Both the position numbers and the translations under genes were made by a program. Shown here piece by piece: positions 9,831 through 61,343 of a stretch of 64,000 bases of DNA. Below the pieces are notes generated by a model, which ran no database searches, was not told the origin of the DNA, and saw only the letters and a program-made list of their open reading frames with translations. Source of the stretch: Promethearchaeota archaeon (lineage in GTDB: Archaea; Asgardarchaeota; Lokiarchaeia; Sigyniarchaeales; SOKP01); assembly GCA_048938005.1 (NCBI GenBank), contig JBHLMQ010000003.1:96001-160000 (forward strand), in the 5' to 3' direction. How positions within the stretch are numbered: the stretch's first letter is position 1; every line of letters begins with the position of its first letter.

Positions 9831-11303
9831 TTATTCCTCTCCTTTTTCTAATTTTTTTATCTTATTTGATAGATCTTGATTTTCCTTTTTTAATCCTATG
9901 ATGTTCTTTTGAAGGGTTTTGATTTCAATTTCTTGTGTATCTAGTTTGTTTTGTAATGGAGTCTTTGAGCTTTCTAATAATATTATTGCTGCTTTTAAGT
10001 CTGAAAGAAAACTTTTATTATCTTTATTTAAATTGATAAAATTTCCTATAACTTTATTAATATTTTTTATGAAATTTCCAGATAAATTTTCGAAACTTTC
10101 ATTTAATTTATTAAAGGTCAAGTCTTCTATTGAATTAATATTTTCTAATAAATTTTCTAAAACACTAATTTGTTTGTCCAAAATTTCAGAAGACCTTAAT
10201 CCTATACTATTAATTTCAGTTAATTTTTGCCCGTGTTTATCTAATAAATTTAAAATCTTTTTCAGATTATCTTCTAACTTTTCTCCGAATAATATATTAA
10301 ATTGTTCTTTAAGTTCAGTTTTAATTTTATCAAAGTATTCTCTGAAAAATTCCTGATCAGAGTCAAATTCTTCGAATCTATCATCAATATACATATCTAA
10401 TTCATTTAATTTTTCCTTTAATGCAAATTTGAAATCTTTTTGTAAATTAGAGATTCCATCACCTAGATTTTCTTTTATTTTAATAATATCCTTTCTCATT
10501 TGCAGATTATTCTCAACAATATTATTAATCATACCTTCACTCCAAGAATTGAGAAATAATATAAATGGTGCAATAAAAAGTTCTAAAAAATTTGATACTC
10601 CATCTTTGAGAGTAGAAAGGATCTTTGCAGAATCTAATTCCGGTTTCTTTGAAAAAATTTGGCTTTCACTTGGAAAAACAATATCTCCAAACAAATCAGG
10701 CATTTCATTAATTTCTAAGATGGGAGATTCTTGCGAGTGAACACAATTAATTAATTCCATTAGTTTTATATAATATTCAATCTTATCTGGAGGTTCTACG
10801 GTGGTTTCTACTTCATGATAACCAGACATTTGACCCTTAGCAGGATTATCTAATCGAAATGTACGAAATCCCAAATCTCCAGGAGTTTCTAAATGAGTAT
10901 GATCAAATACAATACCAATTGCACTTGGATTTGGGGTTTGCCAACCAAGCTGATTGCGTACATCTGTTGAGGAAAAGAAAATATCTAACCCTGGATGCGA
11001 ATGAAACCATCCACAACTAAACCAATTATTTTCTGCATAAGCTGCATCAACCATAGAGAAGGTTACATAATCTTCCGGCTGGAAAGCGACTTCAATCGAA
11101 CTCCCATGCGAAATTGGAACAGCATCTTCAATAATAACATCTCTTATTCCTTTCTTATCTGGTTCTCCCTCAAGATGTCCTATTAAAATACCCATAACTT
11201 CTCTAAATTGTTTTCTATCTCTTACTTTATTACCAAACCGAAGGACATGTAGAAGCATTTTATAGTATGCTTCTGGTTTAATAATAACTGTTTTATCAGT
11301 CAA
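9831..11303 (-). CDS. JAMM/MPN+ metalloprotease (Rpn11/CSN5-like) with long coiled-coil C-terminus
   Basis: EVMGILIG...GWFHSHPGLDIFFSSTD...FRTFRL; TTG start 5 nt after GTGAT. Confidence 0.85.
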   Translation of the reverse strand: MTDKTVIIKPEAYYKMLLHVLRFGNKVRDRKQFREVMGILIGHLEGEPDKKGIRDVIIEDAVPISHGSSIEVAFQPEDYVTFSMVDAAYAENNWFSCGWFHSHPGLDIFFSSTDVRNQLGWQTPNPSAIGIVFDHTHLETPGDLGFRTFRLDNPAKGQMSGYHEVETTVEPPDKIEYYIKLMELINCVHSQESPILEINEMPDLFGDIVFPSESQIFSKKPELDSAKILSTLKDGVSNFLELFIAPFILFLNSWSEGMINNIVENNLQMRKDIIKIKENLGDGISNLQKDFKFALKEKLNELDMYIDDRFEEFDSDQEFFREYFDKIKTELKEQFNILFGEKLEDNLKKILNLLDKHGQKLTEINSIGLRSSEILDKQISVLENLLENINSIEDLTFNKLNESFENLSGNFIKNINKVIGNFINLNKDNKSFLSDLKAAIILLESSKTPLQNKLDTQEIEIKTLQKNIIGLKKENQDLSNKIKKLEKGEE

Positions 11304-11594
11304 ATGTAATCACGATTTATAAAAGATTGAGATATACTTTGTTAATGATATATATATAATTTAATTGGTTTTAAATATTTGAATTAAAGATTAGTAGCAA
11401 AATTTGATTTTCAAAATTTTTATTTAATGATAATTTTTTATGAAATTCAAATATATTTGATAGACATATTAATTGAACTGTATTGAATAAGATGTAATAT
11501 TAAAAAAAAATTTACTAATTAAATTATTGATTTTCTTTTTTTGTTTATATAAATAACTATATACAATTCTTCAAGATTTTTTCAAGCATATCTA

Positions 11595-11855: not shown

Positions 11856-12500
11856 TTAACCTTCATGAGGTAATCTCTTACCACAATAGGGACAGTATAT
11901 AAATCCTAAATCTTTTCCGCAAAAAGGACAAAAATCACCCTCTTTAGCTGCTTGTACTTCAGTTCCTTCCTTTGGTATTGAAGGTAATTGTCTTGATGTT
12001 TTAAGAGTTGATGCTGAAGTTTGAGTTTCTACCTTTCTTGCTGCTACTGTCGCCCTAAAAGCTCGTCTTCTCTCTTCCTCAAGTTCTTCTTGAGATTTTA
12101 TTCCTTCTGACTTTACCCAACCTTGAACCTTAGGTCTTTTTAATTCACTTTCTGGAACTTTTTCTAATTCTATTTCTCTAGTTTCTGATAAAGGAGCCAT
12201 TACTTTTCTTTGATCTTTCTTCTGTATTGCTTGCTTAACGAGGGCTTGAGTTGTTTTCATTACTTGATGTGGGTTAATATTAGGAATCGCAACAGTCCGT
12301 AATACCCACCCGACGATCAAATTTTGATTAGGAAAATCACCTTGAACATCCTCATCCTTAAATACATATGAATCGATTATATCTCTCCCTTTTAATAAAC
12401 GTATTGCCCATTTCTCATTAATTTCTCCTAATTGGATTCTATAACTAGTCCCCGGGACTCCCAATTCGCTTGTGAGAGGAATAAAACCTTTTTCAGCCAC
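11856..12500 (-). CDS. Hypothetical protein with C-terminal double zinc ribbon
   Basis: CPFCG...CPYCG at the C-terminus; GTG start 5 nt after GTGAT. Confidence 0.7.
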   Translation of the reverse strand: MAEKGFIPLTSELGVPGTSYRIQLGEINEKWAIRLLKGRDIIDSYVFKDEDVQGDFPNQNLIVGWVLRTVAIPNINPHQVMKTTQALVKQAIQKKDQRKVMAPLSETREIELEKVPESELKRPKVQGWVKSEGIKSQEELEEERRRAFRATVAARKVETQTSASTLKTSRQLPSIPKEGTEVQAAKEGDFCPFCGKDLGFIYCPYCGKRLPHEG

Positions 12501-49692: not shown

Positions 49693-50439
49693 TCACGTAC
49701 GAGCGAAAGCACCGACAGAATCATGTAAGACATTGTCGATTGAAAGGACAAATCCTACTAAAATTCGGCGATCAGTTTCATTATCAAGGATTTTAAGAGC
49801 ATAAGTGTCTTTAAAGTCAAACACCCCTCCAAGGAAGAAATCTCTCCACCTATCAGCTTTTTCGATTTCTGCGACAATTTTTCCGGTTGCTACTTCATAC
49901 ACTTTAAAGCTAAAACCAAAAAAATTACCAATGGCTTCATACCATCGTGTTCCATCAGGCGCTTCTAAGAAAAATTTATTCTTGAAAAATGTAAGTATCT
50001 TTTTCTTAATTCTTGCTATTAAATTCCCTTGTGGATCCTTTAAATCTTGAGCCCCTCGAGCAGATACGATTTTAGCGTGAATAGTAGCAGCTACGGTACC
50101 ATCAATTTCTTGTAATTCAACCCTACGTCTAATACTTAAGATTATTCGTTTCATCTTTCCAATAACTTGACCATTCTCATCTAAGATATCACCACTACCC
50201 CATTTGGGTTTAGAAGGGAACCCCTCCTAAACATCCCAGTATTTTTCTTTAAGGATGTAATAATTGCGGTTAATATCAAACAATCCTCCTCCAGGAGTAG
50301 GAGTCTTTTTTGATGGAATTATTGGAGGTGATACTTCTTCTTGTGTTTTTGCACTCTCAGGTATTGGTGAACCACACTTCTCACAAAAATTCTGGGATGG
50401 ATCGGTTATCTCATCCCCACAATTCGGACAATATGGCAT
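49693..50439 (-). CDS. Zinc-ribbon + LURP-one/scramblase (Tubby-C-like) protein, split by a 30-nt putative intron; join(50439-50233, 50202-49693), 238 aa
   Basis: The two track ORFs (50227..50439 and 49693..50154) share a frame. Removing 50203-50232 gives ...YYILKEKYWD-WGSGDILDENGQVIGKMKRIILS..., a typical LURP-one-type start. Confidence 0.75.
50203..50232 (-). other. Putative 30-nt BHB-type mRNA intron
   Basis: UGGG AU^G UUUAGGAGGG-GUU-CCCUUCUAAA CCCA AA^U: 4-bp central helix, two 3-nt bulges, 10-bp inner stem; contains an in-frame UAG. Confidence 0.75.
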
Positions 50440-61178: not shown

Positions 61179-61343
61179 ATCAAGAATGTTTTAATTATTT
61201 AACTAATAGGACCTAATAGTCACACATATCATTTATTTCTTAAAAAAAATTTCTATTTTTGTTTTAGTAATAAAGAAATTCAAATTCAAAAAAATATTAT
61301 AATTAATTAAAATAATAATATTTCAAATGCAGTAAAACTTTTC

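Follow-up and report, generated by a model that had tools for sequence, protein, structure and literature searches.

In the genome of a Lokiarchaeial (Asgard) archaeon, a gene for a protein with a zinc ribbon and a LURP-one-related (LOR, PF04525) domain is interrupted by 30 nucleotides (nt) that very probably form a mini-intron of the bulge-helix-bulge (BHB) type in the mRNA precursor. The gene lies at 50439..49693 on the minus strand of a 64,000-nt stretch of DNA (contig JBHLMQ010000003.1, positions 96,001 to 160,000, of assembly GCA_048938005.1), which we call the window. In other species, the same gene carries what appears to be a second, unrelated-looking BHB intron of 27-30 nt, located 9 nt upstream of the first site.

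On the minus strand, a single reading frame runs from the ATG at 50439 to the stop codon at 49693-49695, and the sole break in this frame is a TAG at 50229-50227. We divide the gene as follows:

50233..50439, minus strand: exon 1, from the ATG at 50439 to codon 69 (GAT, Asp); matches Zn_Ribbon_1 (E = 5e-8)
50203..50232, minus strand: predicted intron, 30 nt, phase 0, with the in-frame TAG at 50227-50229
49693..50202, minus strand: exon 2, from WGSGDILDENG... to the stop codon; the rest of the LOR (tubby-like) domain

Exon 1 encodes a C4 zinc ribbon, then a linker, and then the LOR domain's first beta-strand (...GGLFDINRNYYILKEKYWD). Exon 2 matches positions 32-186 of the 187 positions in Pfam's LOR profile (PF04525, E = 4.9e-10), so the first ~30 positions of the profile must come from the other side of the break. 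U50202 is the first base of the Trp codon that begins exon 2 after the predicted junction. An earlier note on this DNA, made from its letters alone, had described two same-frame open reading frames (ORFs), parted by a hairpin with a TAG, in a zinc-ribbon/LURP-one-like gene. The 30 nt at 50232..50203 match its description letter for letter, and the two domain hits bear out its identification of the gene. ORF finders split the gene into two ORFs of 70 and 153 amino acids (aa), which automatic annotation is likely to list as separate genes. The 153-aa ORF is called from a Met codon that is 16 codons into exon 2 (50154 of the window, minus strand) and is conserved in all orthologs.

We searched for orthologs in 40 relatives and in a collection of species-representative genomes (the best 80 of 97 relatives, which gave 79 loci). 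This yielded 99 loci in all, and after 17 duplicates were removed, 82 distinct orthologs remained (that is, 82 distinct exon-2 sequences). A few of the relatives' records carry Asgard phylum labels other than the Lokiarchaeia type. Most of the orthologs (64/82) are uninterrupted and read ...NRNYYILKEKYWDWGSGDILDE... across the KEKYWDWGSG region; the earlier note had anticipated that orthologs would read YWDWGSG without a 10-residue insert. In another 10 orthologs, the gene in the window among them, 30 nt are inserted at one and the same position, which we call site A. The second codon of these inserts is a stop codon in every case: TAG in 4, TAA in 5 (one of which has an additional in-frame TGA), and TGA in 1. 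According to the note, orthologs with a sense codon where the TAG stands would have spoken against splicing; we looked for such a codon and found none among the orthologs.

The remaining 8 of the 82 orthologs have an insert at what we call site B, which is 9 nt upstream of site A and lies between ...ILKE and KYWD... (The carriers are loci L008, L035, L042, L051, L060, L076, L093, and L095.) The site-B inserts are 27 nt (1 case), 28 nt (1 case), 29 nt (2 cases), or 30 nt (4 cases) long. None of the 82 orthologs has both sites occupied. If the 18 inserts are read in frame from exon 1, then 17 of them contain a stop codon, and all three stop codons occur. Three site-B inserts (28, 29, and 29 nt) shift the frame, and the one insert that lacks a stop codon (28 nt) is among these. 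Because of these stops and frameshifts, the inserts cannot be translated through. In all 18 of the insert-bearing orthologs, exon 1 is open and includes the zinc ribbon, and exon 2 is free of stop codons in 82/82 orthologs. In our sample of 25 genomes from the same genus, 9 have an insert, 15 have none, and no ortholog was found in 1.

To check the insert at the level of DNA, we turned to sequencing runs; the 20 that are listed are all DNA metagenomes. One contig from X1 spans the insert with 0 differences, but X1 is possibly the source of the assembly, so this contig is not independent. Pieces from X2 and X13 stop short of bridging the insert, and X6 gave nothing. Independent support comes instead from the homologous 30-nt inserts in the assemblies of 9 other species. 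We also saw short contigs (record 5 of X1 and record 8 of X2, with 3-4 differences each) that correspond to about 50167-50283 of the window and in which exon joins exon directly; these are from other species. In other words, intron-less relatives share samples with the intron-bearing genome.

In archaeal BHB introns, the endonuclease opens each bulge between its second and third nucleotides, which is consistent with position 37/38 of tRNAs. In the transcript of the window's gene, the predicted structure has these elements, from 5' to 3':

50235..50238, minus strand: central helix, exon strand (UGGG), 4 base pairs (bp) with 50205-50208
50232..50234, minus strand: 5' bulge (AUG), predicted cut between 50233 and 50232, after bulge nucleotide 2
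50231-50222, minus strand: 5' arm of the stem, 10 bp, one of them G-U
50221-50219, minus strand: loop (GUU), closing the 10-bp stem
50218-50209, minus strand: 3' arm of the stem, 10 bp with 50231-50222
50208-50205, minus strand: central helix, intron strand (CCCA), pairing with UGGG
50202..50204, minus strand: 3' bulge (AAU), predicted cut between 50203 and 50202

The intron is made up of 1 nt of the first bulge, the stem and loop (50209-50231), the CCCA (50205-50208), and 2 nt of the second bulge. When the 61 nt around the insert are folded without constraints, the minimum-energy result is exactly this BHB structure (-16.8 kcal/mol, with a free-energy difference, or ddG, of 0). It is also the fold that the earlier note had proposed, with the UGGG/CCCA helix, the AUG and AAU bulges, the 10-bp stem, and the GUU loop. 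The inner helix (h') that closes the 5' bulge has 10 bp here, and in the other copies at site A it has 8-10 bp. At site B, there are 2 bp adjacent to the bulge and a 4-5-bp exon-exon helix, AUCC(U)/(G)GGAU, farther out, a few bases from the bulge; this folds in 8/8 of the site-B sequences.

We then applied a single splicing rule to all 18 insert-bearing sequences. Under this rule, the exon forms a 4-bp helix with the 3' part of the insert, each strand of the helix is followed by a 3-nt bulge, both bulges are cut after nucleotide 2, and the cuts must restore the motif [LIV]KE.YWDWG.G. There was exactly one solution for each sequence (18/18), and all of the solutions are in phase 0. The predicted junction, YWD-WGSG, is identical to the sequence of the 64 uninterrupted orthologs. 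For the gene in the window, the solution comprises the cuts that had been suggested before (AU^G and AA^U): they follow the canonical BHB rule, and no other cuts give back the consensus protein. The 3' bulge at site A is AAU in 9/10 sequences and AUU in 1/10.

The gap-free alignment of the ten site-A copies (130 cells) shows the covariation that would be expected of a conserved RNA fold. Bases that are predicted to pair can do so in 98.5% of the cells, as compared to 86.9% if the 3' partners are shuffled, and none of 500 shuffles scored as high (0/500), with the caveat that these counts are from related sequences and the shuffle figures overstate their independence. If the 3' partner is slid by one column in either direction, pairing falls to 61-66%. 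Compensatory changes are seen in 5 of the 9 stem pairs (14 cells). The central helix is paired in 40/40 cells: its exon side is fixed by the Trp-Asp codons, and its intron side varies only between C and U or between A and G. Sixteen cells are G-U or U-G pairs; on the opposite strand they would be A-C, which places the structure in the sense RNA. At site B, the central helix's exon strand contains a synonymous Lys position, and exon and intron covary there: AAAG is found only with CUUU (3/3), while AAGG is found with CCUU (3 cases) or CUUU (2 cases).

The genome also encodes the expected enzymes. The assembly (3.72 Mb in 101 contigs) is 95% complete, and it contains two paralogs of the tRNA-splicing endonuclease EndA, of 198 and 205 aa, which are 30% identical and both above the cut-off of TIGR00324. 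When compared to the model of the fused enzyme, the first EndA aligns with the catalytic half and the second with the N-terminal half. In a pairwise alignment, the second EndA has D-S-A where the first has E-H-S, whose His we take to be the catalytic one. From its sequences, this pair fits the alpha-beta heterotetramer type. The ligase RtcB is encoded as well (568 bits). Across the whole genome, ARAGORN identified only 30 tRNA genes, and 21 of the 30 have introns (9-65 nt), which suggests that the tRNA genes are heavily interrupted and that the program missed many of them. This lineage relies heavily on the tRNA-type splicing pathway. A preprint (bioRxiv 10.64898/2026.10.13.758758) likewise describes Asgard tRNA genes as heavily interrupted, with introns that were gained repeatedly.

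We propose that in the transcript, the exon's UGGG would pair with the intron's CCCA, flanked by two 3-nt bulges, with the intron's 10-bp hairpin closing the 5' bulge. A two-subunit EndA of the alpha/beta type would cut after the second nucleotide of each bulge, and RtcB would join the exons to give ...KEKYWD-WGSGD... and a full-length protein of 238 residues. Unspliced RNA would yield only a 70-residue zinc-ribbon peptide. The cleavage, the ligation, and the roles of EndA and RtcB in them are what we infer from sequence comparisons.

Several observations weigh against this interpretation. First, at site A, the outer exon-exon helix (h) is absent or has at most 3 bp, and it is not conserved: the most that can form is UAC/GUA after a 3-nt gap, in 4/10 sequences, and the others have nothing. 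(The earlier note had already called this helix weak, and the comparison of site-A copies agrees.) The structure departs from the strict hBHBh' form in that just one side of the 3' cut site is closed, so an enzyme with relaxed specificity is needed. The intron in the window is thus a relaxed form of BHB. Second, as a single sequence, the fold is unremarkable (the z-score for 71 nt is -0.23), and 9/17 of the other insert-bearing sequences have a local minimum-energy fold that is more stable than the BHB fold by 2.3-6.0 kcal/mol. Third, a strict scan of the genome for BHB geometry that restores the frame (7 contiguous stem pairs, introns of 20-45 nt, and 180-nt flanks) found 26 real matches and 42 matches for a decoy with parallel pairing. 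There is no excess and no obvious genome-wide population of such introns, although the target was the only GC-rich and clean match. The significance of the hairpin therefore comes from the comparison of orthologs and not from the single sequence, and even there, the relatedness of the sequences weakens the shuffle figures for the covariation. Fourth, the 10 inserts at site A all share a length of exactly 30 nt, which is divisible by three, and splicing would impose no such constraint. (Common descent can explain the uniform length.) As for the position of the sites in the protein, L004, which is the closest of the intron-less orthologs, was modeled with AlphaFold2 (30-sequence alignment, mean pLDDT of 77.2, and pTM of 0.65), and the model has strands at 66-71 and 79-82. 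Site B follows E71 and site A follows D75, so both sites are modeled at the end of the first strand or in the turn to the second strand. By itself, the modeled structure would be compatible with a 10-residue loop there; it is the stops and frameshifts in the inserts that exclude such a loop.

The missing outer helix at site A also raises the issue of whether something other than EndA and RtcB removes the insert from the RNA, for instance another hairpin-specific nuclease and a ligase, since canonical EndA substrates have that helix. But the 3-nt bulges, the 4-bp spacer, and the cuts after nucleotide 2 of the bulge are the geometry of EndA substrates, and this geometry is found at both sites and in 18/18 sequences; furthermore, both EndA and RtcB are encoded in the genome. 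Asgard archaea are reported to have an alpha-beta-type EndA with an extra loop (L1) that is linked to relaxed substrates, and relaxed motifs are known substrates of such enzymes (PMC5829648). We consider a non-EndA route improbable.

Alternatively, the hairpin might have been inserted at the level of DNA and never be removed, which would leave the gene split or dead, with the product of exon 2 (if it is made at all) starting at the internal Met (MKR...). The presence of that Met in every ortholog and the patchy, mobile-element-like distribution of the inserts would fit. However, exon 2 is under strong purifying selection beyond the stop or the frameshift. Among insert-bearing species, the ratio of nonsynonymous to synonymous substitution rates (dN/dS) for exon 2 was 0.013-0.068 in 11 pairs, with dS of about 0.7-3 (two further pairs were saturated), and it was 0.005-0.075 in eight pairs of insert-bearing species and an intron-less sister. 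Such low ratios, at saturating dS, imply that exon 2 is neither a pseudogene nor a stretch that is untranslated in that frame. Selection acts on exon 1 as well: its tail is conserved, and so are the 16 codons between the insert and the Met. The internal Met is no new start, since the uninterrupted orthologs have it equally, and a domain that began there would, according to the model, lack its first two strands. The hairpin also occurs just once in the genome (3.72 Mb) when up to 3 mismatches are allowed, instead of being repeated as a mobile element might be, and a dead or split gene gives no cause for exon-intron pairing that is maintained by covariation. There is only a slim chance that the insert is never removed.

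A third alternative leaves the RNA unspliced and has the ribosome hop over the hairpin and the stop codon. In gene 60 of phage T4, ribosomes take off before a hairpin and stop and land after them. As in gene 60, there is a stop codon right after the break and then a hairpin, which is stable and measures 27-30 nt. At site B, AAA is both the last codon ahead of the insert and the last triplet ahead of exon 2, so that take-off and landing sites could match. At site A, however, the insert is preceded by GAU or GAC, and exon 2 by AAA, GAA, or GAU, and the two match in a way that keeps YWDW in just 1/10 sequences. A hop from UGG to UGG would lose the Asp-Trp, which is near-invariant in the orthologs. 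One of the site-B inserts has no stop codon to bypass, and bypassing leaves the exact 4-bp helix with two 3-nt bulges, at two sites, unexplained. We know of no case of translational bypassing in archaea, and we think it very unlikely here.

Finally, read-through of the stop codon (perhaps with pyrrolysine), which would add 10 residues in a turn between two strands, is suggested by the window's own in-frame TAG and by the stop-codon recoding that is reported for some Asgard lineages (PMC9723677), but it has almost no chance of being correct: in homologous inserts, this codon is TAA or TGA, one insert contains two stops, three site-B inserts change the frame, the translated inserts are not conserved as protein while their base pairs are, and in this genome neither PylS (best hit 27 bits, cut-off 178) nor PylD (24 bits, cut-off 150) was found above its curated cut-off, which was the check for pyl genes that the earlier note had proposed. 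Overall, that note's preference for splicing over read-through or bypassing, which was based on the BHB geometry, is strengthened by the rule's fit to 18/18 sequences, by the variety of stops, and by the covariation.

Other candidates in the genome and the window were less convincing. A looser genome-wide scan with 240-nt open flanks gave 400 real and 366 decoy matches; it skipped the target because exon 1 has only 69 codons. Scan matches such as C38:13073-13101 lie inside intact genes and are due to chance. Similarly, candidates at 2586-2625 of the window are inside an intact gene for a 965-aa ATPase. At 12441-12460 (minus strand), there is a 20-nt GC-rich palindrome with 5-bp arms and a 3-nt loop, near the start of an ORF at 11856..12500; this ORF is continuous, so the palindrome is probably there by chance. 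Scans of the 64-kb window with Rfam and for tRNAs gave no match. The window is colinear throughout (1-64000), in the reversed orientation, with 100 kb of a contig from a genome of the same genus (G016:C30; loci L109-L113), and gene order is kept. A comparison of matched segments with this contig found no other insert in a coding sequence, but its filter of at least 60% identity also lost exon 1 of the target, so it is insensitive. Intron-like gaps in this comparison, at about 61314-61343 and 11301-11330, are intergenic. The title of the earlier note implied that the window has a "first" mini-intron as well; neither the motif scan of the window nor the synteny comparison located it.

How often have these introns come and gone? 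From an alignment of exon 2 (82 rows and 477 columns), we built a quick maximum-likelihood tree, with branch support from the Shimodaira-Hasegawa-like approximate likelihood ratio test (SH-aLRT) only; 32 of its 79 forks are unsupported. All 18 inserts fall within one clade of 46 rows. The tree requires at least 17 changes among the three states (no insert, site A, or site B), and the well-supported branches force at least 4 changes for A and at least 4 for B, with the proviso that this is a single short gene tree, where recombination between alleles could inflate the count, and that telling gains from losses needs a rooted species tree. Supported sisters that differ in state are L040 and L051 (none and B), L006 and L007 (A and none), L052 and L060 (none and B), and L035 and L050 (B and A). 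Both introns are patchy among close relatives, and hence they have often been gained, lost, or both. A more speculative idea, which we consider unlikely, is that splicing of this mRNA is a switch, with unspliced RNA giving the 70-residue zinc-ribbon peptide and spliced RNA giving the full protein, and that the introns are mobile (as RNA or DNA) and have repeatedly entered BHB-competent sites. If that were so, this gene would be a live system for watching the gain of introns in a protein-coding gene.

We read this gene as a new instance of the class of archaeal pre-mRNA BHB introns that is typified by cbf5, now in Asgard archaea and with two alternative sites and patchy gain or loss. A search of the full-text literature for BHB introns in protein-coding genes of Asgard archaea turned up no report (subscription journals and supplementary files were outside its reach). 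According to PMC7714728, the BHB introns in archaeal mRNAs that were known as of 2020 were those in the coding sequence of cbf5 from Crenarchaeota (Watanabe 2002, cited there) and in the 5' untranslated region of HVO_1309 from Haloferax. The cbf5 introns are 16-44 bp, some of them are in frame, and they have been gained and lost (Yokobori 2009, PMC2738675). Like them, the introns described here are short BHB introns within a coding sequence, of similar size, patchy among relatives, and in a host with a heterotetramer-type endonuclease. Unlike cbf5, which encodes an RNA-modification enzyme (a pseudouridine synthase) of Crenarchaeota, this is a zinc-ribbon and LOR gene of Asgard archaea (Lokiarchaeia), its introns have two alternative positions that are 9 nt apart and never occupied together, and turnover is seen between very close relatives. 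Also, splicing of cbf5 was demonstrated experimentally, while here the argument for splicing is from sequence.

HVO_1309 of Haloferax volcanii is similar in being an mRNA target of the tRNA-splicing endonuclease, outside of tRNA and rRNA (PMC7714728). Its intron lies in the untranslated leader and was established by knock-down and by cleavage in vitro, while here the coding sequence is broken and translation depends on the intron's removal. The introns in Asgard tRNA genes are from the same lineage, would be processed by the same predicted enzyme, have similar lengths, and show repeated and apparently independent gains at sites with a competent motif; they differ in being in tRNA genes, and in the available part of that preprint, protein-coding genes serve only as neighbors for matching loci (bioRxiv 10.64898/2026.10.13.758758).

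A second case within a coding sequence would imply that the splicing of mRNA by the tRNA endonuclease goes beyond a curiosity of one gene, and gene callers are liable to split or truncate such genes in Asgard genomes. The 18 species with introns at two sites, together with their many intron-less sisters, form a natural series that is well suited for studying how BHB introns arrive and depart, and the intron offers a defined substrate for probing the specificity of Asgard EndA.

More broadly, eukaryotes remove small introns from the mRNAs of HAC1 and XBP1 with an endonuclease and a tRNA-type ligase (RtcB in animals), which changes the protein that is made. There, the nuclease is IRE1, the motif is a twin stem-loop, and the regulatory role is established; here, the nuclease and the RNA motif are different, and a regulatory role is speculation. 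If splicing does act as a switch in this gene, then the closest relatives of the eukaryotes would have a prokaryotic counterpart to the unconventional splicing of HAC1 and XBP1.

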